Shown here piece by piece: positions 1,599 through 53,763 of a DNA stretch of 64,000 bases. Origin of the DNA: a phage. The first letter of the stretch is position 1; each line of letters begins with the position of its first letter. The stretch lies in NCBI GenBank assembly GCA_025823825.1, contig GCA_025823825.1_4720.1; one strand, 5' to 3'. The notes beneath the pieces are model-generated. The model searched no databases, was not told the DNA's origin, and saw only the letters and a list, made by a program, of their open reading frames with translations. Position numbers and translations under genes: made by a program.

Positions 1599-1733
1599 GT
1601 TAATACTCCAATTAGTTTTTTCGATCGATCAAAAGGATAAAATCAGAAGATTCTTTCTTCATAGGGAAAACACAAGTCGGTTAAGGTTTACTTCTTAAAC
1701 TCCTTGCGTTCTATCAGTTAGGTAATATAGACC

Positions 1734-2534
1734 TCAACTTTTTTCCAATAATGCTGCAACGTTCCGCGCGAAACGAATTACCTTGTAATTGCGGGTCTGT
1801 TTGATATCTTCTTCCCCATCATTGTCACCTTCAGACGGATCTTCCCACATGAAGTCTTGTTCGTCCGCTTTCTGTAAGTAGCGGTATAACTGCACCATGC
1901 TGCGTGCAGTCGGAGAGATAGCGCGAAGCTCATCCAATTCTTCATCCGTGAGCAGAACATGCGGTGAACGCAGTGGTTCCATTGTTGTATTACACAACAG
2001 ACGAATCAGCAGATCGACGCACGGAATAACCGAACCTGGTGAGGCGATTTCTGGGTGTAATGTATAACCCCAATATACGGTGTTAAAATACGTCAAAACA
2101 GCAGGTAGTGACGGATGTTCCATCGCACGACCAATTTGCTGTCTTACGATAGATGCACGATCGTTCAATACATCGAAAGTAATCTGCTGCGGTTCCATAA
2201 CCGCAAGTGAAATACCGTATGCGTCAGCCACACCCAGGATTTCATGAAGGACCGAACGTTCTTCTTCGGTGGATATTGTCCCGATTGCCTTACGCCCTGC
2301 AAGGTCAATCAGCATCGGTGAAACAGCTTCTTTAACCGCATTAAAAGAAGCCTGGTAAGCGTGTTTGTGAATATACAGTGTCCACGCTAATGCGCGCTCA
2401 GCCGCATGAAGCAGATCGACATAAGACAGTTCTTGATGGCATGGGCCATACACACTCACAGCAAGCTTGGTGGCTTTCTCAGAGGCTTGCATAATAACAT
2501 CTGGTGATTTAGGCATATCGCGTTCTTCTTGCAT
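1734..2534 (-). CDS. hypothetical protein (266 aa)
   Basis: Long ORF, no overlapping competitor; function not recognisable. Confidence 0.55.
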   Translation of the reverse strand: MQEERDMPKSPDVIMQASEKATKLAVSVYGPCHQELSYVDLLHAAERALAWTLYIHKHAYQASFNAVKEAVSPMLIDLAGRKAIGTISTEEERSVLHEILGVADAYGISLAVMEPQQITFDVLNDRASIVRQQIGRAMEHPSLPAVLTYFNTVYWGYTLHPEIASPGSVIPCVDLLIRLLCNTTMEPLRSPHVLLTDEELDELRAISPTARSMVQLYRYLQKADEQDFMWEDPSEGDNDGEEDIKQTRNYKVIRFARNVAALLEKS

Positions 2535-2816
2535 CTTTTAAATTCCTACTTAACAATAAAGTTCATATACGGCGTATGTATCCGTAGAATAATGGGTTCT
2601 GGTAAGATCTTACATTAAAATGACGGCATAAAAAGTACCCCCTTACCCACATGGGTAAGGAGGTTCGTCCATCACGACGAAAGGACGTTATGTGACGCGG
2701 TGTCCATAACGGCCCTGGTAGCAGGCATTAAAGATAACAAAAAGGATGTAAGTTGAGCTAAACCACCTAAATACGGTAACGATTACTTCCGTACACAATA
2801 TAACGCAACATCTTTT

Positions 2817-3626
2817 TTACCAATGATTAAAGCTGCCCGCTTTAACGACGTCACAGCGCAGATGGTTACGTAACTGATCCAGGAAGACAACCGGACTGTC
2901 ACCAGACAACATAGCCAGCGCGTGTTGGCCACCGGAACGAACAACAAGCTCATCAACCATTGGTGCTGTAATCGGGAGATCATACGCATCCATGATTGCC
3001 TTGGCTTCCTGTTCTACGTCTTTCTGGAACCCTTCCATCGTCGGAGAGTCATATTTGGTTGCAAACTCGATCCCAGGCAAGTTAACGTAATCGTAAGTCA
3101 TGACACGGGTCATAACACGACGGCGCTCACGTTGCCAGATCTGAGGATCGGTTAACGCGCGAACCGAAAAACACACGTTCACCAACGGCGTTTCAAAATC
3201 TTTACGTAATGGATCACCGTACGGCCCGCAAGGAATAACATCCCCCATCACCATCACGACAGGACGACCACGACGATCGCGTCCCGCTTCTTCTAACCAA
3301 ATCTTAGAAAAGCAATGGCTTACCTTCGTTTCTTCGATTCGTAACGCTCGCTGCAAAAAGCTGGTTGCATCCTGACCGATCTCTGGTTTAGGGTGACCGT
3401 ATTCACCTTTCAACGAACGATTGCGTGCGTTTGTTTGCAGTAAGCTGTTTTCCAGAAACAGCGGTTTCGAACGCTCAAGTTCGTAATATTCTTCGGTATT
3501 GTTAAAACAGTTAAATCCGCCGATAACACAGGTGTAGGCACCGTCAGCATTAGGACGGATAATACCTTTCTTATTCACACCAAGATAACTGGTGCAAACA
3601 AGATTACTAATTGGTGGTTGCATCAT
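2817..3626 (-). CDS. hypothetical protein (269 aa)
   Basis: Long ORF; no confident motif. Confidence 0.55.
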   Translation of the reverse strand: MMQPPISNLVCTSYLGVNKKGIIRPNADGAYTCVIGGFNCFNNTEEYYELERSKPLFLENSLLQTNARNRSLKGEYGHPKPEIGQDATSFLQRALRIEETKVSHCFSKIWLEEAGRDRRGRPVVMVMGDVIPCGPYGDPLRKDFETPLVNVCFSVRALTDPQIWQRERRRVMTRVMTYDYVNLPGIEFATKYDSPTMEGFQKDVEQEAKAIMDAYDLPITAPMVDELVVRSGGQHALAMLSGDSPVVFLDQLRNHLRCDVVKAGSFNHW

Positions 3627-3704
3627 AACCCCTTTATAAGCAACTGAATGAAAAAAGCGTTACATTCCCGCTTTTACGTCAGAAGGTGACGCGTAAGCGT
3701 TATA

Positions 3705-4436
3705 TCACCATTCATACGATCCGGCGCACTGATGCCCCAATAGTACCAACGCGTCGTCTTTGGCAGCTAGGTATTTCTCTAACGTTATCCGTGAAACAGA
3801 CACATTAGAGAAATCCATCACACCTAAGCGATGATCGTAATGGTTAATTTGCATCCGGTAATAACCTTTCTTTACCACCAGAAACTCACCTTGACGCAAC
3901 CATAGCGGAACGTTATCAACCTCCGCATGGATATAAAACACCGGACATTCTGTCGTAACGGAGTTTTCCTTCCCATCACTATCTGTAATTTTCCCTTTGG
4001 GAACAGCCGCGATAAAACATTCTCCGATACGCTCGGTTTGGTACCCGTTCGGATAGCGCGGATCGTGAAATAACCAATGCTCATCGCTAATATCAACATC
4101 GGATAATAACGTACGATGTGGACGTAAGGCGATATCAAACGGAACACGATAGATAACGTACCCGCCTAACCAATGGGCTAAGTGACCGCCAGAAAAATAC
4201 TGCTTGATTGCGGTACTGTAGCCGTATATACAACCCATCAAACTGCTGGACACACAGATCCTTGGAAACGACCCGTCTTCCATACGCAAGGTACGTTGAG
4301 GGATACGTGGCATCATCGTTTTCAGTTCGGTATCGGTGCTAATATGCAATAAACCGAAAGGAAGCGTTTTGCTCGGCACCCACGCACAACGTTCCATAAT
4401 CGCTCTTGGGACAATAGTCTCGATAGACGATAACAT
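3705..4436 (-). CDS. hypothetical protein (243 aa)
   Basis: Long ORF in array; function unknown. Confidence 0.5.
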   Translation of the reverse strand: MLSSIETIVPRAIMERCAWVPSKTLPFGLLHISTDTELKTMMPRIPQRTLRMEDGSFPRICVSSSLMGCIYGYSTAIKQYFSGGHLAHWLGGYVIYRVPFDIALRPHRTLLSDVDISDEHWLFHDPRYPNGYQTERIGECFIAAVPKGKITDSDGKENSVTTECPVFYIHAEVDNVPLWLRQGEFLVVKKGYYRMQINHYDHRLGVMDFSNVSVSRITLEKYLAAKDDALVLLGHQCAGSYEW

Positions 4437-4437
4437 A

Positions 4438-6981: not shown

Positions 6982-7007
6982 GAGCAGGGGCATGAAGCCC
7001 CCTGCTC
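6982..7007 (-). terminator. intrinsic terminator-like hairpin after the beta-like gene
   Basis: GAGCAGGGGGC-atgaa-GCCCCCTGCTC stem-loop directly 3' of the stop at 7008, followed on the minus strand by a T-rich stretch (tcgtttatttcg). Confidence 0.6.
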
Positions 7008-8135
7008 TTATTTGGCGTCGTTAAAATAAATATCAACAGCTCGTTCCGTTGCGTAGAGGAGACCAAGATTCACAGTCCCAACCACTTCCGGTGAACCGAT
7101 GATACGGTTAGCGATACTGGTGCCACTGAAGATAGCATCAAGGGTGTGCCCGTCTTCGGTTTTGTTCACACCATGACCCACGGAAGAGACAACGGATTTC
7201 GCTTGTGCTGCGAAGGTACCTTTATCACCCATCCCCGCACCAAGGTCGTAACGCATGAAAATACGGATAGCGATCTGGTTCTCGCCTAACGGATTACCGT
7301 CTATTCTCACGTTACTGTTATTGATACGCCCCGTTGTTGCTTCGTTGAGTTTCAGTTCCTTAACGCGTTTAGCTCGCGCTTTATCCGCTTCACCGACGAG
7401 CGCCGCCATGGTTTCACTCATATCCTCAATCTGAGCACGGTACAATACATCGATCTGTACAACTTCACCATGAACGTCAGCACGTGGGTTATACTGACTC
7501 ATACGACGTAATGCTTCAACGGCTTCCTGGCTCTCATCGCTCAGATCAGTTGCAATCGGTTCTTCCAGTGTTGCAAGAATCGTTCGAGGTTCAACATGAT
7601 CACCGATTTTCACGAGACCACGAATGTTGAGATGAGCGTCAACAATGAGTGTACGACTTTTAATCGATGGTGTTACGAGGCGATCAGCAAGATTGTCGAA
7701 GATATACGAGCTATCCTCGTGCGTCTCTGGAATATCCAGAATACCAACAAGAGACAGAACACCTGCACGCCAAACAACCTGACCTGGGTTCCACCAATCG
7801 CGTTTAAAATAAAGACGATGGAAAACCACCACATCCTGATCCTTAACGCGATCCCCGACTTTATAATCGGTAATGAGATCGTGAGGATAATACTTACCTG
7901 GTCCTTTCCCGATTATCGTACCGAGCTGGAAAACCTCTTCCCCTAACTCTGGATCGTCGTATTGTATCGTAAGCGCAGTTTTGGTGACCTTCTTAACAAC
8001 ACCATCGCCTTGGGCAGCTGCTGCGAAGAGTTTACCAACACGATGCGCGATGACAGTCTCGCCACCAGTACGCCACGGTTGTACATCGTAACCTTCAGCA
8101 GCAATCATGCGGTTGTGCTGTATACCTATAAATAC
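7008..8135 (-). CDS. multisubunit RNA polymerase beta-like subunit, 3' exon
   Basis: Translation aligns by eye to bacterial beta: VFIGIQHNRMIAAEGYDV ~ VVTDEIHYLSAIEEGNYV; ETHEDSSYIF ~ GYNFEDSILV; IRIFMRYDLGAGMGDKGTFAAQAKSVVSSV ~ [30 protein letters not shown]. Frame is open upstream of the annotated TTG back to a stop at about 8153-8155; joins to the exon ending at 9833. Confidence 0.75.
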   Translation of the reverse strand, partial: VFIGIQHNRMIAAEGYDVQPWRTGGETVIAHRVGKLFAAAAQGDGVVKKVTKTALTIQYDDPELGEEVFQLGTIIGKGPGKYYPHDLITDYKVGDRVKDQDVVVFHRLYFKRDWWNPGQVVWRAGVLSLVGILDIPETHEDSSYIFDNLADRLVTPSIKSRTLIVDAHLNIRGLVKIGDHVEPRTILATLEEPIATDLSDESQEAVEALRRMSQYNPRADVHGEVVQIDVLYRAQIEDMSETMAALVGEADKARAKRVKELKLNEATTGRINNSNVRIDGNPLGENQIAIRIFMRYDLGAGMGDKGTFAAQAKSVVSSVGHGVNKTEDGHTLDAIFSGTSIANRIIGSPEVVGTVNLGLLYATERAVDIYFNDAK

Positions 8136-8481
8136 CAATCTCTTGGGCGAATTTAGTTCTTATTCAACATAATCATACTATTACCAGAATAAGACTGAGA
8201 TTAGATTGTTCAGATAAGGTCGTTAATCTTATCCCGGAGGCGACGATAGGCACATCACCTCCCGCTTACGTTCTCACGCAAGAGCAGACTATATCACATC
8301 TCGTCTTAGGCTTGTTTTCACAAGTCAAACGGTGCTTCTTCAGCACCTCAACGAGAGTTCACTTCTTCCCAGCGCATCCAGCGCCATTCTCTTATCCAAG
8401 GAGAATGCCTCACTCGAGGGGTACCGGGGGATGAATCCCTTAGTCGTTGAACCGTCACCCTAGAACGTTTCACAACGATCC

Positions 8482-9693
8482 TTAGGCGATTGGCTGCGGA
8501 TTACCCTTAGCCTGCGGACCACGAACTTTTAACGTGGTCAACTCTTCATTTTTAAAGCCCGCATCACGAGTTAATCGTCTCGCTTCTTGCACGTCTAACG
8601 TTTCCGTTTCCGCTTTGGCTGAAGGCAGCATTGGGCGTCCCCGCAATTCAATGAATCTCGTCCATACGTCACCGTATAAACGGACCCGCTCTTTGTAAAC
8701 AGAATAGTAAATATATCGCTTTCCATCAGGGAATTTCTTCATTCCTTCCGACTTCAAACGGTAATCTAACAATGTAGGACTGATCCCCATTTCTTTTGCG
8801 CATTCTACACCGGAGAGATACAACTTCGGTACGTCGTCTTCAGGAATAACCACAACGGCACGTTTGTTGTTTGTTTTCTCCAGTTCGATAATGCTATCAT
8901 CCACTTCACGCCATGGTGTTTGATCGGTTGCCCATTTCGCTTGGAGGAAACCATTAACGACCGGCTGATCTGGATCGTTAACATATTCCGATGCGGTGGG
9001 AAGCTTAACACCGATATGGTTGGCGAAATCCGTTAACGAATTAAAAATCTGGATTTCTTTCGTTAACGTGGATCTGGTAATAACACCTTTACTGGAGTCT
9101 TCAGATAGCGTAGCAATCTCGTATTCCGTCGGGATGTACCATGGGTCATCGCCGCGATATTTACGGTATTGCAACCTTTCGGTAAACGGACGTTCTTCAC
9201 CACGGTAAACACGATGATGAATGAAATCAATATTCACACCAAGTTTACGTGCTGCTTCCGTCATAGACGCATAATCCGTAACTTCTCCGGTATCGATATT
9301 GCGAACCTGAATGGGTTTGCCGTAAGCTTCGATGGCTTTTCGACGCATGGTCATGATGCGTGCGTGTTCGTTGTTCTCTTTTGCCGTCACCCATTCGAGA
9401 TTATCATTCTCCGTGTTACCGTCTGGATCAAGGTAATTATTAAGTTTATTACCGTCCTTATGGTTCACGTGGAGTTCGTATGCATCATCGATGTTACGAT
9501 ATGTCAACATCAATAAACGATGCATCGAACGATATGTGACAGTACCGTCGTGGCTACGAAACGCGTATCGCCAATACCCACCCATTATAACTGGCTTATA
9601 AATAAAACCAGTTTCTTTGTTACGCAATGTCCCATCAATGGCAATTTCAAGAAACGGGAATTCCTCTACTGTTTTGTACGTCAATTTTCTCAT
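8482..9693 (-). CDS. intron-encoded HNH homing endonuclease (403 aa)
   Basis: HNH_3-type motif HVNHKDGNKLNN…NLEWVTAKENNEHA; NUMOD-like DNA-binding motif TDYASMTEAARKLGVN; lies wholly inside the intron with its own promoter-like motif at 9739-9747. Confidence 0.8.
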   Translation of the reverse strand: MRKLTYKTVEEFPFLEIAIDGTLRNKETGFIYKPVIMGGYWRYAFRSHDGTVTYRSMHRLLMLTYRNIDDAYELHVNHKDGNKLNNYLDPDGNTENDNLEWVTAKENNEHARIMTMRRKAIEAYGKPIQVRNIDTGEVTDYASMTEAARKLGVNIDFIHHRVYRGEERPFTERLQYRKYRGDDPWYIPTEYEIATLSEDSSKGVITRSTLTKEIQIFNSLTDFANHIGVKLPTASEYVNDPDQPVVNGFLQAKWATDQTPWREVDDSIIELEKTNNKRAVVVIPEDDVPKLYLSGVECAKEMGISPTLLDYRLKSEGMKKFPDGKRYIYYSVYKERVRLYGDVWTRFIELRGRPMLPSAKAETETLDVQEARRLTRDAGFKNEELTTLKVRGPQAKGNPQPIA

Positions 9694-9738
9694 TGGCTAC
9701 ATTCCTTAAATCCTGCAGTGAACTTATCCTGCACTTTC

Positions 9739-9747
9739 GTAATATAG
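9739..9747 (-). promoter_or_regulatory. promoter-like motif CTATATTAC (minus strand) inside intron 1, upstream of the HNH ORF
   Basis: Same 9-mer and orientation as four other sites (1722, 28099, 41221, 53755), each upstream of a minus-strand gene start. Confidence 0.45.
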
Positions 9748-9832
9748 CCTTAATTCTGTTTACATTGAAGCCTTAATCATCTCTATCAGCAGCAGGTACT
9801 GCAAGTGCTGATGTACTCATTATTGACGAGCT

Positions 9833-12800: not shown

Positions 12801-12982
12801 TTACTCAGCATGTATTCGTTTTCTGGAGGACCTATCAATGATGGATCCGTTGCGGTGTAATGATAGACAGCATAACGCGGCAGCTGCAATAGCTGCACTA
12901 AACGTAATCTCGGCGACAATAGCTCTTGGTAGCGTCGGACACCAAACTGTCGGTAGTAATCAAGGTATTTAAGTTTTGCCAT
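9833..12982 (-). CDS. multisubunit RNA polymerase beta-like subunit, 5' exon
   Basis: ATG at 12982 with GGAG ribosome-binding site. C-terminal region matches beta motifs: SEGTKDSGDVGISAYLAPNANIVSVYGETKPYDEKTDG ~ [36 protein letters not shown]. The last 20 codons of the annotated 1069-aa ORF (SSSIMSTSALAVPAADRDD) are intron read-through. Confidence 0.75.
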
Positions 12983-26982: not shown

Positions 26983-27540
26983 TTAAACTTCTTCGTTTTC
27001 TGAACCTAACGATTCAGCATCTGGATCGTCAACAGGAATTGTTGCATCAAAATACCGTTTCGTATGCGTGGTTGTATATCCTACGCTATCGGTGATGGAA
27101 ATCGTAAACGTGACTTCCCTTGCACGGATTAAGCGTAGTTTATTCATGAAGTTACGGAACGGCATCGATCCCCGATTCAACTCCTTAATGACGTTTCCCC
27201 GAATACTGGAAATGTCTTTATTCGTTTTATCAGGGTGTCGTTTCTTCACATCACGCATATGTCGGGTAATATACGAATTGAGCTGATTTGCGCCGATCCC
27301 TCTCTCCGTATAAATCTGCAACAGGAACTCCGTAAGGAAATCCTGTCTACCCGTAGGCGTCCAGAAATTGTTACCGTGATTGTAGTTAGTCGCTCGTCCT
27401 CGATTGCTTTGAGGATTTTCATCATCGCTTTCATCACGACGCTTAAGCGGATTAATGCGTGCGCGGAAAGAGACTTCATTATATTTATTTGTCATAATAC
27501 ACCAGTGTACTGACTGAGTGCGAAGGTTAGGAGTTCGCAA
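26983..27540 (-). CDS. hypothetical protein (185 aa)
   Basis: ORF preceded by hairpin 26941-26970; basic, Arg-rich. Confidence 0.5.
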   Translation of the reverse strand: MRTPNLRTQSVHWCIMTNKYNEVSFRARINPLKRRDESDDENPQSNRGRATNYNHGNNFWTPTGRQDFLTEFLLQIYTERGIGANQLNSYITRHMRDVKKRHPDKTNKDISSIRGNVIKELNRGSMPFRNFMNKLRLIRAREVTFTISITDSVGYTTTHTKRYFDATIPVDDPDAESLGSENEEV

Positions 27541-28007
27541 CAGTCTCTCGCTAGTTTCCTTGTTTTGCGTAATCCATAAGCCGCATCCAAATCGTCACGT
27601 TCCGCCAGCGCGTCTAACCACGTCGCAAGTATGCGTCCATACTCGATAACGTCACGCATGAGAACGTCGAACTGGATAACACGACCATCGGCATCAGCAA
27701 GCCAACGATTGAATGTGATTTGTGGTGCTAGTATTGCATATGTTCTCTCCTCTAATGCGATTATGTTTATGTTGCCTTCGTTATCGAACGCTTGATGCCA
27801 ACGGCGAAGGTCAAGCATCAACGACTCAGCGTCCATATACCACAACGGTAAATACGTTTTACGTGCAACGCGTATATCGTAGATGTTGTGAACCCAGGAC
27901 GTTGTTTTATAAAGCAACAAGAGTTCGTTTAACCGTTGCCTATCATCTTGAAACGTCTTCCTTTTATAACGTTGGAACGCACGCCTCAAGAAAAAGCGAT
28001 GTAACAT
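27492..28007 (-). CDS. hypothetical protein (171 aa)
   Basis: ORF with promoter-like motif at 28099-28107 about 90 nt upstream. Confidence 0.5.
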   Translation of the reverse strand: MLHRFFLRRAFQRYKRKTFQDDRQRLNELLLLYKTTSWVHNIYDIRVARKTYLPLWYMDAESLMLDLRRWHQAFDNEGNINIIALEERTYAILAPQITFNRWLADADGRVIQFDVLMRDVIEYGRILATWLDALAERDDLDAAYGLRKTRKLARDCCELLTFALSQYTGVL

Positions 28008-28098
28008 GGCATCACCTATGTATCATTCTTGCAGGCATCAATGAAGCCATCACAAGAAGGTAACGTTATACGTCGCCTTCATGACTGTCATCATGAAG

Positions 28099-28107
28099 GT
28101 AATATAG
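28099..28107 (-). promoter_or_regulatory. promoter-like motif CTATATTAC (minus strand)
   Basis: Extended match catcatgaaggtaatatag shared over 19 nt with the site at 53745-53763. Confidence 0.5.
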
Positions 28108-28140
28108 TCCTGTTATTTTTTTCAATACGGAGAATGTAAA

Positions 28141-30167: not shown

Positions 30168-30842
30168 TTAGCCCTCATCAAGGTTATTCTGGAGATGCAT
30201 CGCGGTGAGGATAACGCCAACCGCCGAAACCGATTTTGCCTTGCTGTCTTCAGGGAGCTGCTCCAAGCTTACGGTACCTGTTTCTAACAGCATGCGGTTC
30301 ATCGCGTTGAACTTCTTATCGTCACCACCACGAGCCTGCATCAGCTCTCGGTTCACGTTCGGCATCGACCGTCCTAACGTCGCTTGCATTTCCGGCTGGC
30401 TCCAAGTGGAACCCTTACTTTCACCCGTCGGCTGATTGGTGAGCTGGTCCTTGGTGTTGTTGTTTTTCGGAATCGAAATTTTAGCACTCAACGTTTCGGC
30501 TTGTCGGCGGTTTGGAATCAGGTACAATCTGGTTGGGCGGTCACGAAGCACCAGTTGTCCTGTTTTCTGGTCGGTGAGGTAAATACGCTGGAAGAAAGGG
30601 AAACCGTATTTCTTACCGACTTCCAACGCACGTTTTATCGTCACCTCGTTTTTGTTCATGTTGGGTACCCAGATGGGTAGAATCTCTTTCTTATCCCGAC
30701 ATAAACGCATATAGGCATCAAACGTCTCATCATCGATTTCAGCAAAACGTTTTTTGTAAATAGCGTAAGTCGGGCTCGATTCACCCACCAGGTCTTTGAT
30801 ATACCCAAGAATGAATTTTTCTGCTGCAGCGCGGTTGGACAT
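30168..30842 (-). CDS. hypothetical protein (224 aa)
   Basis: ORF in operon-like array. Confidence 0.5.
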   Translation of the reverse strand: MSNRAAAEKFILGYIKDLVGESSPTYAIYKKRFAEIDDETFDAYMRLCRDKKEILPIWVPNMNKNEVTIKRALEVGKKYGFPFFQRIYLTDQKTGQLVLRDRPTRLYLIPNRRQAETLSAKISIPKNNNTKDQLTNQPTGESKGSTWSQPEMQATLGRSMPNVNRELMQARGGDDKKFNAMNRMLLETGTVSLEQLPEDSKAKSVSAVGVILTAMHLQNNLDEG

Positions 30843-38657: not shown

Positions 38658-38688
38658 CCTCCTCCTTCCCTGACGGGTTGGAGGAGGG
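38658..38688. terminator. terminator-like hairpin of the CCTCC/GGAGG family
   Basis: CCCTCCTCC-ttccctgacgggtt-GGAGGAGGG; same family as the hairpins at 25795, 42811, 54461 and 56286. Confidence 0.5.
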
Positions 38689-38762: not shown

Positions 38763-39482
38763 TTAGGATGCGGATAATCTAGCGTACTTCTGTCGAATAT
38801 AGTTCTTACGGCGAACTTCGTCATCCTCGTCACGCCATTCGAGATAAGCAACGAAACGGCGTAACTGTGCCGCAGTCATCGTTGACGATCGGTCTTTTAC
38901 ATCTAGAACGACGTAACGAACGTCATCAACGCCGTCGCAACCAACATAACGGAATACCAAAAGACCGTTATCGTATTCAATGATGATAACTTCGAATCGT
39001 TTCTCGAACAAATAAAACAGTTCTGATTCAATGATCATCGGAACTACGCATTTATCATCATGATCGATGATTTTCATCATCACCCGTAACGCGCGAGGAG
39101 TATGACGAGCGAACTGACCGTCGAAACGTTGTTTCATCGTTTGTTCCACGTCGTCTGTTTTTGTTCCAGGCCAAGGACGCACTACAGATTTCGGTGGTGT
39201 AAGACGGCAGCGGTACGCTTGTATAAACAACAGAATATCAGCAACATTAGGAAATTCATCCTGGTCTTTGTATAGCTTACGGATAATATCCGGGATCGTA
39301 GTCAACAAATATTTCTTATCGCCTCCCACTTTCTCGAGATTAGCGATATGTCCTTCTACCACAGGCTGGTAAACAAAATTATACCAGTGGTGGTATTTTG
39401 CAACGTGTTGGTATTTCGGGATGAGATTAAGAACAGTATTTACTGCGCGTTTTAATGGGTTCATCAGAAGAATCCTTCTCAT
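38763..39482 (-). CDS. hypothetical protein (239 aa)
   Basis: ORF with terminator downstream. Confidence 0.5.
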   Translation of the reverse strand: MRRILLMNPLKRAVNTVLNLIPKYQHVAKYHHWYNFVYQPVVEGHIANLEKVGGDKKYLLTTIPDIIRKLYKDQDEFPNVADILLFIQAYRCRLTPPKSVVRPWPGTKTDDVEQTMKQRFDGQFARHTPRALRVMMKIIDHDDKCVVPMIIESELFYLFEKRFEVIIIEYDNGLLVFRYVGCDGVDDVRYVVLDVKDRSSTMTAAQLRRFVAYLEWRDEDDEVRRKNYIRQKYARLSAS

Positions 39483-39913
39483 GTTTTAATATGCACATCG
39501 TCAATCCCCTCGGTAATCCAGCCGATGGGAAGGACAATCGTTGTTATCGTGTTATGTGTGTAAGGATTAAGAAAATGGAAATAGTAATTTGTGTTGGATT
39601 GTTCGATACGTAGGTCGAGCTGTGCGTCTTCAGGTAACCGTAACCAAGCACCGTACAGTTCATTAAACTTACGCTGAATTTTACCGGGGTTCATTGGAAC
39701 CCCACGACCACGTTGATGCAGCTGACGTAATGATTCAATCAAACACTCAGAGATACCCGTTGTCGTTCCGTTATCGCTCGTATCAACAACGATGAACTCT
39801 CGTGACCCACGACCAAGATAAAAACCAGCAACAAAAGCTGCAGCAACAAAAAATATCGTACCGATACCAATATACCAGTAGTAAGCATCCATAACGGCCT
39901 CACTTATACCCAA
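39479..39913 (-). CDS. small membrane protein (144 aa)
   Basis: N-terminal hydrophobic helix YWYIGIGTIFFVAAAFVAGFYLG. Confidence 0.45.
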   Translation of the reverse strand: MGISEAVMDAYYWYIGIGTIFFVAAAFVAGFYLGRGSREFIVVDTSDNGTTTGISECLIESLRQLHQRGRGVPMNPGKIQRKFNELYGAWLRLPEDAQLDLRIEQSNTNYYFHFLNPYTHNTITTIVLPIGWITEGIDDVHIKT

Positions 39914-40437
39914 TAGTCGGCAAGCGGTTTCACCTTATTAATGGGCAACTGTACTTTACCGATGTTCTCTACATCCGCATCCGCATAGAGAACAATTTTA
40001 TCATCGTCTCTTTCCCAACGAATAATGAATCGACCAGGAAGAAGATTACCCTGTTCAAGAGACGCAGTAACCTGTTGTGTTAAAACAGACAACCAAGCAG
40101 GCATCAGTGTTGCGATGTCTAAGTCATTTGACCACTCAGCGCGTTGCTCCACTGGACGTAACATACGTTCGACGGTGCGTTGAACTGTTGCGGTGATATA
40201 GCCTTTATCTTCGTCACTGATTGGATCAGGGCGAGACACAAAACGTTCAGCAGGCTTGTGGGTAATATACTCATGCAAATCGATGAGTGGTGTTGTCATA
40301 GTACTCGCTCCATCAGAATGTAATTGGGTAACCCGTAGGGTTGTCTGCATGCTATTCAGCAGCGCAAAAGCGCCATAAACAACAATGATACTAAGTACGA
40401 CCAAAACAGAAATCATTAATGTGTATTGCATTGCCAT
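39904..40437 (-). CDS. membrane protein (177 aa)
   Basis: N-terminal hydrophobic helix LMISVLVVLSIIVVYGAFALL. Confidence 0.45.
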   Translation of the reverse strand: MAMQYTLMISVLVVLSIIVVYGAFALLNSMQTTLRVTQLHSDGASTMTTPLIDLHEYITHKPAERFVSRPDPISDEDKGYITATVQRTVERMLRPVEQRAEWSNDLDIATLMPAWLSVLTQQVTASLEQGNLLPGRFIIRWERDDDKIVLYADADVENIGKVQLPINKVKPLADYWV

Positions 40438-40532
40438 CTCCTACTCACACGTATCTTGAAGATTAGTTAAAATCAACAAAAGAAAAAACGATATAAAGCA
40501 AGGTCCTCTGATATCAGAGGACCTTGGATCAA

Positions 40533-41189
40533 TTAGCTTGCAGCTTCTTCATTTGTATCAGGTTTGCTTCCCCCTAACAAACCGTCAAACAGACCCGTAT
40601 GTTTCAGGTAGAAGAGAGCGATAGCACCCATTGCCGCTGCGCTCGTCGCCGTTAACGCAACCCCAGCACGATACTGCCATTTACGGTCAGGCTTTTGATC
40701 AAGCGCCATACGACGCATGTATTCAGCCTCTGCTTCATTCCGATGAATTTCGGATTCAGCCAAGCGGGCTAAGGTATCGCGGTCAAGGTTATCATAACGT
40801 ACGTTCATGGTGGTTTCCTCTTGTTTGGAAGTTGATTGCTTAGTGGATTCTTGGTCAACAGTCGTTTCAGATGGTTCAAACGGCTGGTTGTTCATTTTCT
40901 TATCTTTATCGGACATGATGGACTCCTTCGATTTTTGAGATGAAATTGATTTAAACCATCGTGGATGGCGGTATTCTGTTTTACATGTACAGTTAAGTTT
41001 CTCGTGCAGGAAAGCGTAAAAACGTTTTGCGCCTACACGTAAGGCTTTCAGCATTACCCATCCACGAGCACTCAAACGGTGTAGCTGTTGCGGTATGTCT
41101 AGTTTCCTAGCCAAGCGAAAGTATCTTTCAATCACTTCGATAGGAAACCATTGTTGTTCCACATCGGTGAGACTGAAAGTCTTATCCAT
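40533..41189 (-). CDS. tail-anchored membrane protein (218 aa or shorter)
   Basis: C-terminal hydrophobic helix GVALTATSAAAMGAIALFYL; promoter-like motif at 41221-41229 about 30 nt upstream. Confidence 0.45.
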   Translation of the reverse strand: MDKTFSLTDVEQQWFPIEVIERYFRLARKLDIPQQLHRLSARGWVMLKALRVGAKRFYAFLHEKLNCTCKTEYRHPRWFKSISSQKSKESIMSDKDKKMNNQPFEPSETTVDQESTKQSTSKQEETTMNVRYDNLDRDTLARLAESEIHRNEAEAEYMRRMALDQKPDRKWQYRAGVALTATSAAAMGAIALFYLKHTGLFDGLLGGSKPDTNEEAAS

Positions 41190-41220
41190 GAATGAAATCT
41201 CGCTGGCTTACTTCACCTAA

Positions 41221-41229
41221 GTAATATAG
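41221..41229 (-). promoter_or_regulatory. promoter-like motif CTATATTAC (minus strand)
   Basis: Shares gtaatatagccgtgaaa with the site at 53755. Confidence 0.5.
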
Positions 41230-41321
41230 CCGTGAAAAATGTTGGATTAAGTTAAATACTGCAACCGTAACTGATTTTATGGGCTTTTAGCCTAAACCAA
41301 TCATCTTCGGAATCATCATCT

Positions 41322-43499: not shown

Positions 43500-43503
43500 T
43501 TAA

Positions 43504-44727: not shown

Positions 44728-44760
44728 TTTCTGTTTCCTTCTTGGGTTTTGTACATGTTG

Positions 44761-46187: not shown

Positions 46188-46205
46188 CAGAAATCCTTAT
46201 TTGTC

Positions 46206-48725: not shown

Positions 48726-48776
48726 ACTTCAGCGTTATTTTCTATATCGTTATTTAAATCAGTAGGAGATTACAGC

Positions 48777-49865
48777 ATGAGCGATCTGGCAACAGACAAT
48801 CGCACAAAAGGGAGTCAGCTAGCTCCAGACAACAACGTAAGCGTTTTCCGTATCTTTGCCTTGGGTACTGTTGCTGCCGACTTTTCCAATAAAAGTCTGG
48901 AGGAAGATCCTAACCAAACGCTGGAGGTCTTTCTTGATGAGATGATGTCGGGCGCTGATGGGAAAGTTGAAGCGGCGGGAAGCGTTAAAGAAGTCAGTGC
49001 AACAGACGCTCAAGGGAACAGCTATACGGCGAAAGCGGCAACAACAACCAGCGTACAGTGTTACTGGTTACCCTTCGGCAGTAACCGGATGACAGCACCT
49101 AACTTGAGGAAAGGTCAGCGTGTGGTGGTCTGGCGTACCGCCGATGAAGAACAACTCTACTGGCAGCCCAAAGGAGGGGATAGCGAGCTGATGACCATGG
49201 AATCGGTTATCCTCACCGTCAGCGCACGTCCTAGCGCTAAGAAGGACCGTAAATCGATTTCAACGGAAGACTGCTATTACCTAATGGTTGATACCTTCCT
49301 CAAGAAAGCGGTTATCGGTACCAGCGCACAGCTTGGTGAAGTTACCCAAGTTTACATGGAACTTAATCTGGACGAGGGTTACCTACAGGTTGCGGACAGC
49401 GTCCATCAAAATCTGCTGTTACTCCATTTCGTTGAACATATGCTGCGTTATCAAAACCAGGACGACAGCATCATCGACGTGACAAAAAAGAACATCACAT
49501 TCCAGTGCGAGGATACGCTCAAAGCAATTGCTAAGAACGATATCCGAATGAAAGCAAAAAATATTTATACGGAATGTGAGAACTTCGAGCGTACCAGCAA
49601 AACAGAAAGCGTTACGAGTCAGAATGTTTCTTTGAAGTGTGATCGTTACACCGCGCAAGTATCAGGACAGACCACGTTTAAATGTCCGAATACGGTATTC
49701 ACTGGAGCTGTAAGCTTCACAGGTGAAGACGGAAACACGATGACGTTGAATGGGAACTTCATACACGTCGCAGGCTCTTGGCGTTCACCAACCGGAACAA
49801 ACGTATACACCCACGATCACGGTGGTGTAGATCGTGGCAGCGGTCGTACAGACCCATTCCAATAA
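48777..49865 (+). CDS. hypothetical protein (362 aa)
   Basis: ORF with ribosome-binding site (aggagattacagcatg); followed by A11 tract and hairpin. Confidence 0.55.
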   Translation: MSDLATDNRTKGSQLAPDNNVSVFRIFALGTVAADFSNKSLEEDPNQTLEVFLDEMMSGADGKVEAAGSVKEVSATDAQGNSYTAKAATTTSVQCYWLPFGSNRMTAPNLRKGQRVVVWRTADEEQLYWQPKGGDSELMTMESVILTVSARPSAKKDRKSISTEDCYYLMVDTFLKKAVIGTSAQLGEVTQVYMELNLDEGYLQVADSVHQNLLLLHFVEHMLRYQNQDDSIIDVTKKNITFQCEDTLKAIAKNDIRMKAKNIYTECENFERTSKTESVTSQNVSLKCDRYTAQVSGQTTFKCPNTVFTGAVSFTGEDGNTMTLNGNFIHVAGSWRSPTGTNVYTHDHGGVDRGSGRTDPFQ

Positions 49866-49888
49866 AAAAAAAAAGAAATGCTATACAA

Positions 49889-49923
49889 CCTCCTTCCCCG
49901 GCCTTGACGGCTAGGGAAGGAGG
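49889..49923. terminator. bidirectional terminator-like hairpin; 29-nt core identical to the hairpin at 14-50
   Basis: CCTCCTTCC-ccggccttgacggctag-GGAAGGAGG between convergent genes; T-rich on the plus side (tttatttatt) and A11 on the other side (U-run for the minus strand). Confidence 0.6.
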
Positions 49924-49938
49924 ATTATAGTTTATTTA

Positions 49939-50328
49939 TTAACGCGTTGCATTCTGGATGATTTCTTTTCCGATCTTAACCAAAGCGGGTATCTGTACAG
50001 CGGTTGCGCCTCGATGACGAAACGCGGTCGTTAACGCGGTATCGATACTCACCGCACGTCCGTGAAGACGATCGAAATAGACTTGAGTGATTGCAGCAGC
50101 ATAATCCTTTCGCTGTTTCTTGGTTTGGTTCAACAGCGTCGCACTATGACTAACGATGAAGTAAGCGATTAAGAAGAACGCCGCTGAACGCGAACCGGGT
50201 AGAAAACCTTGTCGCTTAGGAAGCATCTCACAATCGCGAACAGAATTATCGTTCGCGAGCTCTTCCATGTCAACACAGCATAATTTTGCATAGGTGTGGA
50301 GATAGTGGGTAAAAGTTGAATTTAACAT
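49939..50328 (-). CDS. hypothetical protein (129 aa)
   Basis: ORF in minus-strand array of small genes. Confidence 0.45.
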   Translation of the reverse strand: MLNSTFTHYLHTYAKLCCVDMEELANDNSVRDCEMLPKRQGFLPGSRSAAFFLIAYFIVSHSATLLNQTKKQRKDYAAAITQVYFDRLHGRAVSIDTALTTAFRHRGATAVQIPALVKIGKEIIQNATR

Positions 50329-50433
50329 TTTCTTTCCTCGATTGCCATGAGTTCAATGTATAGCTTAAACGTCACAGAACGACGTATAACGGTTTGTTTT
50401 AATTTCTAAGGGGTTTCCTTATCTACGATTGAA

Positions 50434-50796
50434 TTAAAGCGTTCTGAAGAGTTCTGTAGCGTTCTCGTCACGTAGACAGGCTTCGTTCAACAATTCAGCT
50501 AACAGCTTCGACCGAACTTCAACAAATGTCCTGAGGCGATGCTCCCATTCTAAACGGATAGTGTACGTATTATCCAGGTTTTTGTAATCAACGACAGATG
50601 TAGAACAACGGGCTTCGCGTTTGTTCACAGCACTCCAAACATCACGGATAACCGTCACGCCTTTCTTGGTACACGTAAACGTTAAAATAAAGCGATTATT
50701 CGCTGCTTCTTCACGGACATGACTAAATTCACTTCGTAACGATGAGACTTTGATCAGTCGGTCAATAGCTAACGATAAACCGATACGTTGTTGCAT
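50434..50796 (-). CDS. hypothetical protein (120 aa)
   Basis: ORF in array. Confidence 0.45.
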   Translation of the reverse strand: MQQRIGLSLAIDRLIKVSSLRSEFSHVREEAANNRFILTFTCTKKGVTVIRDVWSAVNKREARCSTSVVDYKNLDNTYTIRLEWEHRLRTFVEVRSKLLAELLNEACLRDENATELFRTL

Positions 50797-50797
50797 A

Positions 50798-51223
50798 TCA
50801 AATTCCTTCTTTCAAAATCTCATTAAGACCGTCAGTAATCCAGTCGAACTTCGTCTTAATCATGGCTGGGTTCAATCCATATACTTCCCACACAAGCTGG
50901 GGTTTATGTGTTCCATCGTCCAAACAAAGCACATCGATTGAGAGTACCATACCACCCGTCAATTTCATGTTCTCGCAACTACGAAGATATGCGGATTCTA
51001 GCAATACTTTCCCTAACGCAGTGCAAGCAAATGTTAACCGGGAAGAGTACAGGTACGATGACGTTTTACAGTAGGTTGCTGATATCGGTTGAATATGTTT
51101 GCGGAGTTTGGCGTCTTCACGTAAAAGCAATAACGTGTGATGTAACCGCGTATGCTCGGTAACCGATGAGCTATACTCACCGATACACTCTTCGGCGACT
51201 GATTTAGGCCATTTAATTTGCAT
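50798..51223 (-). CDS. hypothetical protein (141 aa)
   Basis: ORF in array, 1-nt spacing to the neighbour. Confidence 0.45.
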   Translation of the reverse strand: MQIKWPKSVAEECIGEYSSSVTEHTRLHHTLLLLREDAKLRKHIQPISATYCKTSSYLYSSRLTFACTALGKVLLESAYLRSCENMKLTGGMVLSIDVLCLDDGTHKPQLVWEVYGLNPAMIKTKFDWITDGLNEILKEGI

Positions 51224-51238
51224 GTTCGATTCCCCTTA

Positions 51239-51682
51239 TTAGCAGTACGTGTCGTTCAACACGCGACTCACGTCTAAATGTTCTAGTTGATGTATAATGC
51301 CATCAGCAATGCGTTGTAGATAGGCTGTCTTATCCAATACCGAATCCGATGAAATCGCCCAGTAGGCTTCTGATACCCGATATTCGCTACCTTCACCGAG
51401 ACTGACCTGATTAACCAGCTTCACATCAGCGTATCTCGTCCCACGTTCAGCGTACCAGTAGATGTTTTCCAGTACGTCCTTTCCCGTTTGTGAAAACACA
51501 AACCAAAGCTTCACGTCTAAGCCGGATACTTCGACATCAACGCAGCGAAGATGATTCTCCAAAGGCGCAAAAGAGGCTAAACGTTCCAGCGCGTTTTGCA
51601 GCGTGGGGTGATTAAGCTTTTCTAGATCTTTAGCGGGTTGTTTAGATGATAGCGCGATCGATTTACAGAATTTGGTTTCCAC
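51239..51682 (-). CDS. hypothetical protein (147 aa)
   Basis: ORF in array. Confidence 0.45.
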   Translation of the reverse strand: METKFCKSIALSSKQPAKDLEKLNHPTLQNALERLASFAPLENHLRCVDVEVSGLDVKLWFVFSQTGKDVLENIYWYAERGTRYADVKLVNQVSLGEGSEYRVSEAYWAISSDSVLDKTAYLQRIADGIIHQLEHLDVSRVLNDTYC

Positions 51683-51790
51683 GGTAGGTTCCTCTTGATA
51701 GATGGTAGTAACGGGGATACCGCGGTATCCCCTAAGTCTTTATAACACATTCCAAGCCATATTGGATACAGGCTCGTTACGTTCGATGAA

Positions 51791-52192
51791 TCACATCAGT
51801 TGTTCTTTAAGTTGGGTTAACTTATTCGCAACGATGGTCTCAACATCGATGATCTTGTTCATGTTGTCGAGGGTATCCTGCCAGATGAAAATATCCACAG
51901 AACGGGTTCCGGCTAACCCGTTCTCAGGACGATGGTCGCGGGTCACGTAGCGTGGTCTCTGCGGGCAGGTTTGTAACTCGATCCAAAGCGCATCTAACGG
52001 ACCACGGTCCGTGACACCTAAGGCGAAGAATTCACCTCGTACGACCAGAACATCATCAGCCGTCCTGACACGGGTTGATCCTTCGTACACCAATTCCATC
52101 TTTGCTCGGCAGGCTGGGTTCTCGTTCCACGCCTGGACGGCATCGGCAAGGGCTATTGACGTTGCGGTGGTGTTCGTTTGATCATGTTGCAT
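51791..52192 (-). CDS. hypothetical protein (133 aa)
   Basis: ORF in array. Confidence 0.45.
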   Translation of the reverse strand: MQHDQTNTTATSIALADAVQAWNENPACRAKMELVYEGSTRVRTADDVLVVRGEFFALGVTDRGPLDALWIELQTCPQRPRYVTRDHRPENGLAGTRSVDIFIWQDTLDNMNKIIDVETIVANKLTQLKEQLM

Positions 52193-52269
52193 TCTAAGCT
52201 CCTGTAACGCTCTCTAAGCGTCGTTTTAAGTTAAGGTATAGTTTCCCTTCTTTGGATTCGTTTATTGCG

Positions 52270-52545
52270 TTATACGGCTTTTCTGTGCGCGTAGAACGCC
52301 TTCGTTCCGTTGTTGATTGCTTCAACCACATCCCGGGTTAACACAACGGCGTTATCGCTTCGAGACGACGGTGCGTAATACCCTTCACCGTTCTCGGTAA
52401 TCAGGCGATAACGGACTAAGCCTATGCTCGGTTCAACACGTAGCACCTTTTCAAGTTTGTATTTGATGATCTTCGTCAGGCTGACTGTGTCTGACGCGTA
52501 GATTGCTTTATAAACCTTGTTCTTTGCTGTCGGTTTCATCAACAT
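52270..52545 (-). CDS. hypothetical protein (91 aa)
   Basis: Short ORF in array. Confidence 0.4.
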   Translation of the reverse strand: MLMKPTAKNKVYKAIYASDTVSLTKIIKYKLEKVLRVEPSIGLVRYRLITENGEGYYAPSSRSDNAVVLTRDVVEAINNGTKAFYAHRKAV

Positions 52546-52585
52546 GATTTCTGTTGTACTTTCCTTTTCGCTTGTTGGTGTTGGA

Positions 52586-52939
52586 TTAAGGTTTAGGTTC
52601 CGTTTTGTGTTGTGTGAGTAGTGTGTTGATCTGCTCCCGTTGTTCTTTTAAGTATGCGGGAAGCTGGTCTTCCCATACCGTTCCGATTTCCAACGTGATG
52701 TACCAGCGTTGTTCGGAAGCCAGCCATTGAAAACCGCTCTGTAAACGAAGGATGCTAGGATCACGTACCTTGCTTGCGCTGTAACGGTTGAACCAATCCA
52801 GGTATTCTGCTTTCCCTTCATCGTCGGCAACGTAACGCTGCACGCTGTTCTTCCCTTTGTTCTCGTATCCCGTTGCACGTATCATGCGAGCGTTGCTCCC
52901 GTATCGTGTTGCGTATGGCGTAGCATGGTAGCATCCCAT
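52586..52939 (-). CDS. hypothetical protein (117 aa)
   Basis: ORF in array; overlaps the upstream ORF's 3' end. Confidence 0.4.
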   Translation of the reverse strand: MGCYHATPYATRYGSNARMIRATGYENKGKNSVQRYVADDEGKAEYLDWFNRYSASKVRDPSILRLQSGFQWLASEQRWYITLEIGTVWEDQLPAYLKEQREQINTLLTQHKTEPKP

Positions 52940-53664
52940 TGTACGATCCGGCTCCGGCTTACCCGCATCATGATGGATTCGTCATCAAGCCCTGGTTGCA
53001 CAACCGGCAACCAACGTTCGTTAAGCACCTTCGCTTCAACGCGTTTCTTGCGGGGATTGTAACGCACCTCGCTAACCCAAGCGAATCCAAGTGGATGCAC
53101 AACCCGTGGATAATACATGCGGAGCAATTGATGCATCCGATCTGTCACCTCCAGGTTAACATCCACCATGTAAGGTTTCACCATGGTAAGCTTTTTGGTG
53201 TAATACGTTCCAACGGTATGGTTACGCCAGCATGGCAAGGCATGATCCCCTTCTCTCAGTTTGCTATCCGGGTTCATCGGCCAGAACTGCTGTTCACCGC
53301 CCAGCATCGCGTGCCGCCGATCAACGCAACGAACCTGATCGGCGAACAATGGATCCAGGATATCATCCACCGCGCCCTTATTGCGATAACCGTGATGTAC
53401 CACCAACCTGCTTGCGCTCATCCGTTGCGGATGCTGGCTCTTATGCGCATACAGTCCTCCATCACCGCGCGTGTCGTAAAGATAGCCGCATGCGCCACGC
53501 CATATCACCTTGCCTACGGTTCTCTCGTTTTCAAGCAGCATCGTCGGCCCATCAAGCAAATTGGTGAACCACTGCACCTTCACGCATTCCGCTTGGACAT
53601 GCTCAGGTAATGCCTGATACTCTTTTTGGGTGTATAAGGTATCAAAAATGATTTCATCGTTCAT
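52882..53664 (-). CDS. hypothetical protein (260 aa)
   Basis: First gene of the array; promoter-like motif at 53755-53763 about 90 nt upstream. Confidence 0.5.
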   Translation of the reverse strand: MNDEIIFDTLYTQKEYQALPEHVQAECVKVQWFTNLLDGPTMLLENERTVGKVIWRGACGYLYDTRGDGGLYAHKSQHPQRMSASRLVVHHGYRNKGAVDDILDPLFADQVRCVDRRHAMLGGEQQFWPMNPDSKLREGDHALPCWRNHTVGTYYTKKLTMVKPYMVDVNLEVTDRMHQLLRMYYPRVVHPLGFAWVSEVRYNPRKKRVEAKVLNERWLPVVQPGLDDESIMMRVSRSRIVQWDATMLRHTQHDTGATLA

Positions 53665-53754
53665 TTAAAAGATCCTCTGTTTTTCACGTTAATTAAACAA
53701 CGTATTGATTTCTATTCGATAGCAATACGAACATCGTACGTATGCATCATGAAG

Positions 53755-53763
53755 GTAATATAG
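53755..53763 (-). promoter_or_regulatory. promoter-like motif CTATATTAC (minus strand)
   Basis: Extended conservation with sites at 28099 and 41221 (TTTCACGGCTATATTACCTTCATGATG on the minus strand). Confidence 0.5.

Follow-up and report, generated by a model that had tools for sequence, protein, structure and literature searches.

The stretch analysed here, referred to as the window, comprises 64,000 nucleotides (nt) of phage DNA (GenBank assembly GCA_025823825.1, contig GCA_025823825.1_4720.1), and the element in question is a short AT-rich sequence, GTAATATAG on the plus strand and CTATATTAC when read on the minus strand. Exact copies of this 9-mer occur five times in the whole window, at 1722, 9739, 28099, 41221 and 53755, all on the plus strand, and the open reading frames (ORFs) that follow on the minus strand are, in the same order, 1119-1598, 8482-9693, 27492-28007, 40533-41189 and 52882-53664. 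The window shares 92-98% identity with Escherichia phage vB_EcoM_Goslar, one of the nucleus-forming jumbo phages (Chimalliviridae), and spans the arbitrary ends of the Goslar record, its position 1 corresponding approximately to Goslar 200216 and its position 38664 to Goslar 1. No database genome is identical to it; IMG/VR contains two metagenomic relatives (3300011560_000001, 237.5 kb, and 3300045988_173921, 183 kb). We are highly confident that CTATATTAC is the early-promoter core of this Goslar-like phage. The copies at 1722, 28099, 41221 and 53755 are each an early promoter heading an operon of small genes, and the copy at 9739, which lies in a group I intron, is weighed separately.

The number and placement of the copies depart clearly from chance. 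In 100 dinucleotide-preserving shuffles of the window the 9-mer is expected 0.35 times per shuffled window, and none of the shuffles reached five. Measured from the first base of the motif, the next minus-strand start codon begins 124, 46, 92, 32 and 91 nt away (copies 1722, 9739, 28099, 41221 and 53755). Flanking bases are shared as well, CTATATTACCTTCATGATG being common to the 28099 and 53755 copies and TTTCACGGCTATATTAC to those at 41221 and 53755, and a weight-matrix scan of both strands of the window leaves exactly the five reported copies above noise, none of them on the opposite strand. The 8-nt core TATATTAC is exact in all five. It has three further minus-strand copies in the window, at 27266, 40262 and 61473, each preceded by G and not C, so that the total is 8 against 2.25 expected and the extra three are about the chance number. 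These bare 8-mers (27266..27273, with a matrix score of -20.7, and similarly 40262-40269 and 61473-61480, all on the minus strand) lie within ORFs and lack the flanks. They were considered as additional promoters and rejected for these reasons, and also because the Goslar counterpart of the 27266 copy fails to rescue the gene behind it, gp202.

The same signal can be followed through the Goslar genome, which was joined from five stretches for the motif scan. It contains 10 perfect TATATTAC copies, none of them on the plus strand; eight are intergenic with strongly conserved flanks. The weight matrix, trained on flanked intergenic Goslar core sites, also picks up the variant TACATTAC and returns 12 strong sites with scores of 29.8-40.2; the next best site scores 15.6 and the maximum in 20 Markov-simulated genomes, which served as the null, is 18. 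When each true site is left out of the training in turn, the scores are 21-39. The extended consensus on the coding strand is tTAATncAAaannTTTCACGnC-TAYATTAC-cTAn-GTGAt. All 12 strong sites are on the strand of the downstream gene and 11 are outside coding sequence. The exception lies in the tiny annotated coding sequence gp047 (49584-49772, 62 aa), which carries the site (49716-49742) in its 5' part and has its start codon upstream of the predicted transcription start; gp047 is probably mis-annotated or begins further downstream. Weak variant sites are found ahead of the RNA polymerase (RNAP) gene gp165, as TACATAAC, and ahead of gp225, as TACATTAC (151618-151644 and 187623-187649). Conservation across Goslar-like genomes is uninformative on selection, the intergenic regions being near-identical throughout.

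The sequence-only reading that had pointed out the motif claimed five copies in a single orientation, a position 30-125 nt ahead of minus-strand starts, conserved flanks and no copy ahead of plus-strand genes, and all four claims agree with these results (32-124 nt as measured). The genome-wide motif search that it proposed, run here as the weight-matrix scan, showed every strong Goslar site to be co-oriented with its downstream gene. It had also stated that similar frequencies inside coding regions and in both orientations would speak against a promoter. The 9-mer is confined to intergenic or intronic sequence on one strand; the bare 8-mer occurs, on the same strand, three times in ORFs, at about the frequency of chance.

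Evidence on when these genes are expressed comes from Goslar. Armbruster et al. (bioRxiv 10.1101/2023.09.20.558163) reported that chimallin knockdown arrests infection at an early membrane vesicle holding the injected DNA and the virion-RNAP subunit gp196, and that gp196 tagged with green fluorescent protein co-localises with the injected DNA in this vesicle. In the arrested state the injected virion RNAP would be the only polymerase at work. Their Supplementary Table 2 lists per-gene reads at 30 min for control and chimallin (ChmA) knockdown, from which we use the log2 fold change (log2FC) of knockdown over control for Goslar genes, transferred to the window genes through orthologues. The ratios are bimodal, from about -1 to +1.4 for genes that are still transcribed and from -3 to -8 for nucleus-dependent ones. 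Genes that remain transcribed fall into nine minus-strand blocks: gp004-gp001, gp021-gp014, gp040-gp037, gp047/046-gp044, gp075-gp070, gp159-gp094, gp225 via chmA to gp162, gp214-gp216 and gp200-gp201.

A matrix site is present in the gap just ahead of the first gene in all nine blocks, strong in eight and weak in one (the TACATTAC ahead of gp225), and the hypergeometric probability of this coincidence for the strong sites (8 of 12 on 9 of 249 genes) is P = 1.3e-11. As there is no other candidate at the 5' edge of the largest early block, the gp225 site suggests that quite degenerate flanks can work. The other four strong sites coincide with internal step-ups of the ratio within early blocks: from gp106 (about +0.1) to gp105 (about +1.0), from gp176 (about -0.5) to gp175 (about +0.9), from gp244 (about -1.1; gp244/245) to the nuclear-shell gene chmA (about +0.9) and, only slightly, from gp183 (about +1.0) to gp182 (about +1.3). 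A negative control is provided by the bare 8-mer inside gp201 (Goslar 225855), 366 nt ahead of gp202. As gp202 stays at about -3.5, the bare 8-mer does not rescue it and the core by itself is thus insufficient.

In the window, the first of the four promoters is AGTTGAGGTCTATATTACCTAACTGAT (1713..1739, minus strand; 9-mer 1722-1730), with a score of 29.8 against the null of 18 and a predicted start at G 1715. It heads a unit of three hypothetical genes (63..1598, minus strand), ORFs 1119-1598, 602-1015 and 63-602, which are the orthologues of gp214, gp215 and gp216. Their Goslar log2FC are about +1.1 for gp214 (+1.04/+1.33/+0.91), about -0.05 for gp215 and about -0.35 for gp216, and the upstream gp213 is at -3.3 to -4.3; a Pfam search of the first gene of this unit returned no family. 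The second is ATAACAGGACTATATTACCTTCATGAT (28090..28116, minus strand; 9-mer 28099-28107; score 31.2; predicted start G 28092), ahead of ORFs 27492-28007 and 26983-27540 (unit 26983..28007, minus strand), orthologues of gp200 (+0.49/+0.60/+0.51) and gp201 (+0.59/+0.64/+0.52). The divergent neighbour gp199 is at -3.4 to -5.5, and the unit stops before the orthologue of the late gene gp202 (25833-26951; about -3.5).

The third promoter, TTTTCACGGCTATATTACTTAGGTGAA (41212..41238, minus strand; 9-mer 41221-41229), has a score of 39.4 and a predicted start at G 41214, and precedes the orthologues of gp004 (40533-41189), gp003, gp002 and gp001 (unit 38763..41189, minus strand). The log2FC of gp004 is about +1.24 (+1.26/+1.28/+1.20) and that of the divergent neighbour gp005 is -5.3 to -7.6. 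Along the unit the ratio declines to +0.3 to +0.5 from gp003 to gp001, and the drop from gp004 to gp003 coincides with an intrinsic terminator or attenuator just past the first gene (40499..40526, minus strand; a 12-pair stem followed by CTTTAT), which corresponds to the annotated Goslar terminator 1841-1862. The fourth is CTTTCACGGCTATATTACCTTCATGAT (53746..53772, minus strand; 9-mer 53755-53763; score 37.8; predicted start G 53748), whose Goslar counterpart is the TACATTAC variant according to the alignment. It heads eight small hypothetical genes, the orthologues of gp021 to gp014 (49939..53664, minus strand). All eight are at +0.8 to +1.4, with gp021 at +1.20/+1.37/+1.19, and the flanking gp022 (-4.0 to -5.4) and gp013 are below -4. 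Taken together, the upstream neighbours of the Goslar orthologues behind the four window copies fall 8- to 100-fold in the arrested state.

Terminator hairpins of the form CCCTCCC-loop-GGGAGGG followed by TTTAT are found in Goslar at 166925-167060, 180565-180700, 140933-141060 and 117667-117760, and in the window hairpins lie at 40499-40526, 2637-2664 and 6982-7007. The Goslar hairpins resemble a conserved terminator motif that Putzeys et al. reported for phiKZ, BCCYCCCC...GGGRRGG..TTAT. The ratio of knockdown to control rises just past several of the Goslar hairpins. Ratio step-ups that lack a matrix match (gp183, gp236, gp156 and gp111) were considered as hidden degenerate promoters and rejected, each of them following a CCCTCCC...GGGAGGG-TTTAT hairpin with no core-like sequence.

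Published promoters of related phages agree with an early function. The phiKZ early promoter is predicted to be TATATTAC (PMC7058600, Table 2), so that its core is the one found here; the comparison with phiKZ-family consensuses that the sequence-only reading had called for therefore places the motif in a known class. Its proposal of a phage-RNAP promoter class marking a temporal gene set is upheld by this identity together with the vesicle-stage expression in Goslar of the genes behind the four copies. The same table gives, also as bioinformatic predictions, the 201phi2-1 early promoter TTAWTAVAA_HYWTTTRARR_BTATATTACDWHDGTG, an OBP early promoter ending in ...ATATTATYWWADTG and an EL one ending in ...TACATTATY (PMC7058600). 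According to a review (PMC7598289), jumbo phages that encode their own RNAPs all carry a conserved AT-rich motif, about 10 nt long and centred near -10, ahead of early operons; wherever transcripts have been profiled this motif is the early-promoter consensus, and the review credits it to the virion RNAP. In phiKZ, differential RNA sequencing (dRNA-seq) placed the motif at 32 primary start sites, among them the start of the chimallin gene PHIKZ054, and leaders were mostly of 31-40 nt (PMC8244752). The 28-32 early promoters of phiKZ are credited to the virion RNAP (Ceyssens 2014, cited in PMC8244752 and PMC7598289). For phage AR9, mapping of early promoters gave the consensus AAATATATATTAT-(6N)-G, with transcription beginning at the G (PMC5312081).

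Applying the AR9 rule, TATATTAT-(6N)-G(+1), transcription is predicted to start at the last G of the conserved GTG, that is at 1715, 9732, 28092, 41214 and 53748, and for chmA near Goslar 172964. By analogy with phiKZ and AR9, the core would then lie at about -14 to -7, with the start at the conserved G seven bases past it. The enzyme that reads the core would be the multisubunit virion RNAP, packaged and injected with the DNA, which would require neither host sigma factors nor new protein synthesis, and the presence of gp196 in the vesicle where these genes are transcribed lends such recognition indirect support. The window encodes an orthologue of the virion-RNAP subunit gp196 (30168..30842, minus strand, from its annotation), a late gene with a log2FC of -3.3 to -6.0; its product is packaged, and the virion RNAP containing it would read the early promoters in the next infection.

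Because the core contains TATATT, which agrees with TATAAT at five of six positions, the copies might instead be -10 boxes of sigma-70 promoters for the E. coli RNAP, and one of them (53784-53757) does conform to the loosest sigma-70 pattern, at 9 of 12. The hallmarks of such promoters (-35 TTGACA, -10 TATAAT, spacing of 16-18 nt) are not found here: only that one of the five copies passes the 9/12 pattern, the best -35 matches are just 1-4 of 6, and sigma-70-like sites are not enriched over shuffles (7 against 16.8, 28 against 27.4 and 11 against 9.3 expected). The conserved C after TATATTA, the GTG at +5 to +7 and the TTTCACGG just upstream are no sigma-70 elements either. Moreover, the same core is used in Pseudomonas and Klebsiella phages, with the near-identical TATATTAT in the Bacillus phage AR9; transcription of the phiKZ type is independent of the host RNAP (PMC7598289), and Goslar DNA resides in a vesicle with the virion RNAP. 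We rejected host sigma-70 promoters for want of a -35 box and of enrichment, and consider them extremely improbable.

Some points weigh against an early promoter or against the placement of its start. The RNA sequencing (RNA-seq) table is per gene and comes from Goslar, 92-98% identical, and not from the window phage; its strands were apparently not separated, and plus-strand genes inside early blocks also look early. In the RNA-seq paper (bioRxiv 10.1101/2023.09.20.558163), the legend to Extended Data Fig. 4 puts the 'TSS sequences' (transcription start sites) of chmA and of the next gene 91 nt ahead of their start codons; for chmA this lies, if taken literally, 11 nt upstream of the core, although the wording is ambiguous. 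We read this figure as the beginning of the displayed sequence, as it is the same for both genes and covers nearly the whole chmA-gp247 gap (92 nt). The words 'promoter' and 'motif' do not occur in that paper.

Taken at its word, the legend would start chmA before the core and leave the motif in the leader, and this would favour a different function at operon starts, whether as a promoter of the middle/late, non-virion RNAP, as a regulator site or as an RNA leader element. The middle and late signals of phiKZ are of another kind, a weak element near -22/-24 that is AT-rich or reads TACT, and a TATG where transcription starts (PMC7598289, PMC8244752). The genes downstream of the motif are those transcribed in the vesicle, where the non-virion RNAP is thought not to act on the genome, and the homologous motif of phiKZ and AR9 is linked to early start sites by rapid amplification of cDNA 5' ends, dRNA-seq and primer extension (PMC8244752, PMC5312081). 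A function other than early promotion is thus very unlikely in our view, and early promotion remains the preferred reading of the four intergenic copies.

The fifth copy is inside an insertion that Goslar lacks, since window 8138-9806 corresponds to only 41 Goslar nt inside gp207. The insertion is a predicted group I intron (8148..9775, minus strand) that splits the virion-RNAP beta-subunit gene, the gp207 orthologue, after the codon ending ...DRDD. According to the translation, exon 1 ends with ...DRDD at 9776 and exon 2 restarts with (P/G)KRLVF... at 8147, and the gp207 alignment gives exon 1 as 9776-12982 and exon 2 as 7008..8147, both on the minus strand. In Goslar gp207 is late (-3.85/-4.13/-3.96). 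The ribozyme core at 8265-8707 (minus strand) matches the Rfam family Intron_gpI with 49.9 bits and E = 3.6e-11, a score just under the gathering score of 50 and visible solely in E-value mode. The intron encodes an HNH/NUMOD homing endonuclease of 403 aa (8482..9693, minus strand; Pfam NUMOD1 1.7e-8, I-TevI_DNA-bd, HNH_3), whose best match in the phage collection is PhiPA3 gp210 (36.9% identity, E = 4e-49). Endonuclease-bearing inserts are also present at the site after ...DD of the orthologous gene in PhiPA3, Serratia 2050HW, Vibrio C-ZP2022 and Klebsiella phiKp_32.

Birkholz et al. 2024 (PMC11620839) showed that PhiPA3 gp210, an intron endonuclease, nicks the virion-RNAP gene of phiKZ and favours PhiPA3 when the phages co-infect. 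Its intron is, like that of the window, of group I and at the same codon position, after ...DD, of the virion-RNAP beta gene. With the ribozyme, the ORF, the site and an intron-less Goslar allele all present, the insertion is a gp210-type group I intron with a homing endonuclease, whose splicing and cleavage are predicted from these features. Synonymous differences from Goslar cluster at 8100-8147 and 9776-9806 (CGT>AGA, CTG>TTG, GGA>GGT, CAA>CAG and others), and there is a possible Gly>Pro change at the exon junction of the gp207 orthologue. The differences flanking the intron site have the look of either a co-conversion tract or a homing site recoded to resist cleavage.

One further copy of the intron was found in IMG/VR, and a metagenome scan with a pattern that excluded the motif gave no more. 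In the IMG/VR contig 3300011560_000001 the ORF corresponding to 8482-9693 has 62-88% DNA identity to the window, with the ribozyme and the flanking exons at 95-100%, and the divergence of the endonuclease starts straight after the GTG of the predicted start site. It is as if the endonuclease cassette evolved, or were exchanged, apart from the rest of the intron. Another group I intron of the window (13229-13721, minus strand; Rfam 60.8 bits) accompanies a 494-aa HNH/NUMOD ORF (13640-15124, minus strand), the gp206 orthologue, and sits between two upstream parts of the virion-RNAP gene cluster. It contains no motif of the TATATTAC type, and gp206 is late in Goslar, at about -4; on both counts it forms an internal contrast to the intron with the 9739 copy.

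The intron copy, GAATTAAGGCTATATTACGAAAGTGCA (9730..9756, minus strand; 9-mer 9739-9747), occupies part of the 83 nt that separate the 5' splice site from the endonuclease ATG. The motif begins 27 nt into the intron and ends 45 nt before the ATG, and the predicted transcription start, G 9732, is 39 nt before that codon. The copy has the exact 9-mer, a GTG at the consensus offset and a proximal GGC; its flanks, ATTAAGG-C-core-GAAA-GTG, are closer to the 201phi2-1 and phiKZ variants than to those of Goslar itself. If the copy is active, it would give the gp210-like endonuclease an early transcript of its own, which would uncouple it from the late host gene gp207. The sequence-only reading had proposed such independent transcription, and the proposal is plausible. 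That 9739 is an active early promoter, a function predicted from this sequence, has a probability of about one half. The fuller proposal, in which a mobile intron carries a working early promoter and the endonuclease would be made at the vesicle stage, before the late host gene, we put forward only tentatively, at somewhat less than an even chance.

Several observations go against activity of the intron copy. Its leave-one-out score is 3.2, against the 21-39 of true sites, and even the chance intragenic 8-mer at 40262 scores slightly above it. The score of its flanks alone falls at the 7.7th percentile of random positions. The copy is conserved in contig 3300011560, but so, to no lesser degree, is the adjoining intron sequence: over the first 75 nt of the intron and over the ribozyme, contig and window agree at 98-100%. 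A clean core is missing from the homologous introns of PhiPA3, Serratia 2050HW and Vibrio C-ZP2022, and the bare 8-mer in Goslar gp201 is demonstrably inactive. Together with the other intron endonuclease of the cluster, the gp206 orthologue without motif and with late expression in Goslar, these points would fit a copy that is no promoter at all: a chance AT-rich 9-mer or a part of the 5' structure of the intron (P1/P2), with the endonuclease made only from the late host transcript. Chance is hard to reconcile with the arithmetic, since the exact 9-mer is expected at about 3e-6 per position per strand, which we calculate as about 2e-4 for the 83-nt gap on the right strand. Nor does it account for the GTG at the consensus offset, for the G-G-C just upstream as in true sites or for flanks that fit the 201phi2-1 and phiKZ variants. 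The 39-nt leader is of a typical length, phiKZ leaders being mostly 31-40 nt, and AR9 offers a precedent. We give an inactive copy not quite an even chance.

The corresponding places of the homologous introns were inspected. PhiPA3 has GAAGTC-TATACTCC, which matches the core at 6 of 8 positions and is no clean core, and the transcription of gp210 is not covered in PMC11620839. In phiKp_32 the element is AATATTAT, which agrees at 7 of 8 positions with that phage's own TAYATTAY candidates (44147 and 4688 of the stretch scanned), the two reference core sites given by a 50-kb scan. All four introns examined have an AT-rich element (TATACTCC in PhiPA3, then TTAATATG and TAATTACA, and AATATTAT in phiKp_32), located 29-38 nt from the 5' splice site and about 25-30 nt ahead of the endonuclease ATG. 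These elements may be a decayed ancestral intron promoter, or mere intron structure; there is a hint that such a promoter is ancestral to the intron family and variably decayed. A search for the early promoters of these phages through their chimallin genes by tblastn did not reach PhiPA3, 2050HW, C-ZP2022 or phiKp_32, chimallin being too divergent.

Elsewhere in the window, four segments have no megablast alignment to Goslar (53229-53572, 44206-44733, 59505-60938 and 14615-14788) within surroundings that are 92-98% identical; one is inside the gp021 orthologue, the first gene of an early operon, and another in a tail-fibre-like region. Upstream of the 53755 promoter, 53773-54507 is an unusually long stretch of about 735 nt with no ORF above 56 aa, whose counterpart in Goslar is the gp022-gp021 gap of 854 nt. 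No Rfam family matches it at the gathering threshold.

The promoter class itself is known from the phiKZ family, so that the result is real but ordinary in kind; no description of Goslar early promoters was found in the searched literature, and neither the Goslar consensus nor the map of early units is described there. Goslar-like phages are the E. coli model for nucleus-forming phages, and both an early-promoter consensus and an early-unit map are now at hand for them. With this consensus, early genes can be annotated in new chimalliviruses and insertions designed for early expression in engineered phages. Should the 9739 copy be active, the timing of a selfish element would be linked to gp210-type competition between co-infecting phages, and an early endonuclease would be well timed to cut the virion-RNAP gene of a co-infecting phage without the intron once the genomes become accessible.

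Intron ORFs with a transcription signal separate from the interrupted gene exist in other phages. The T4 intron endonucleases, e.g. I-TevI, have their own intron promoters, which are middle/late and read by the host RNAP with phage factors. The 9739 copy would, if active, resemble this T4-type arrangement, its candidate signal being early and for the virion RNAP. A direct precedent for an early promoter and ORF in the intron of a late gene is AR9, where the early gene g190 has its own promoter inside the intron of the late gene g189 (PMC5312081); in comparison, the 9739 copy is a sequence match with weak flanks. As for the promoters in general, AR9 shares with the window a near-identical core, TATATTAT, and the start-site G seven bases past it; it differs in being a Bacillus phage with uracil-DNA outside the Chimalliviridae, and in that its sites are experimentally mapped.

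With 201phi2-1 the Goslar-like phages share the three-part layout, a far-upstream TTAAT/AA element, TTTxAxx, and the core with N4-GTG. The flanks of the window sites fit the 201phi2-1 form TTTRARR-B-TATATTAC-DWHD-GTG, and the copies at 41221 and 9739 match its downstream DWHD-GTG exactly, yet most Goslar sites have C and not R at two of the TTTRARR positions. phiKZ has the identical 8-nt core TATATTAC, a T/A-rich upstream stretch and (G/T/A)TG four bases past the core, and its sites are intergenic, co-oriented with early operons and include one ahead of the chimallin gene. The initial 50 kb of its genome contain seven TATATTAC copies, each of which lies between genes, reads in the direction of the gene that follows and has N4-(G/T/A)TG behind it. 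The chimallin promoters of phiKZ (PHIKZ054) and Goslar are identical at 29 of 37 bases, with the core ending 73 nt before the ATG in both. The two differ in the proximal upstream element, TTTAAAC/GAG in phiKZ and TTTCACGG in Goslar-like phages, in the use of the TACATTAC variant by the latter and in the number of sites, about 12-14 found in Goslar against 28-32 in phiKZ; the phiKZ starts are mapped experimentally, those of Goslar-like phages inferred. E. coli and Pseudomonas phages with barely alignable proteins thus share this signal almost to the base, which implies that the surface with which the virion RNAP recognises promoters is very old and strongly constrained.

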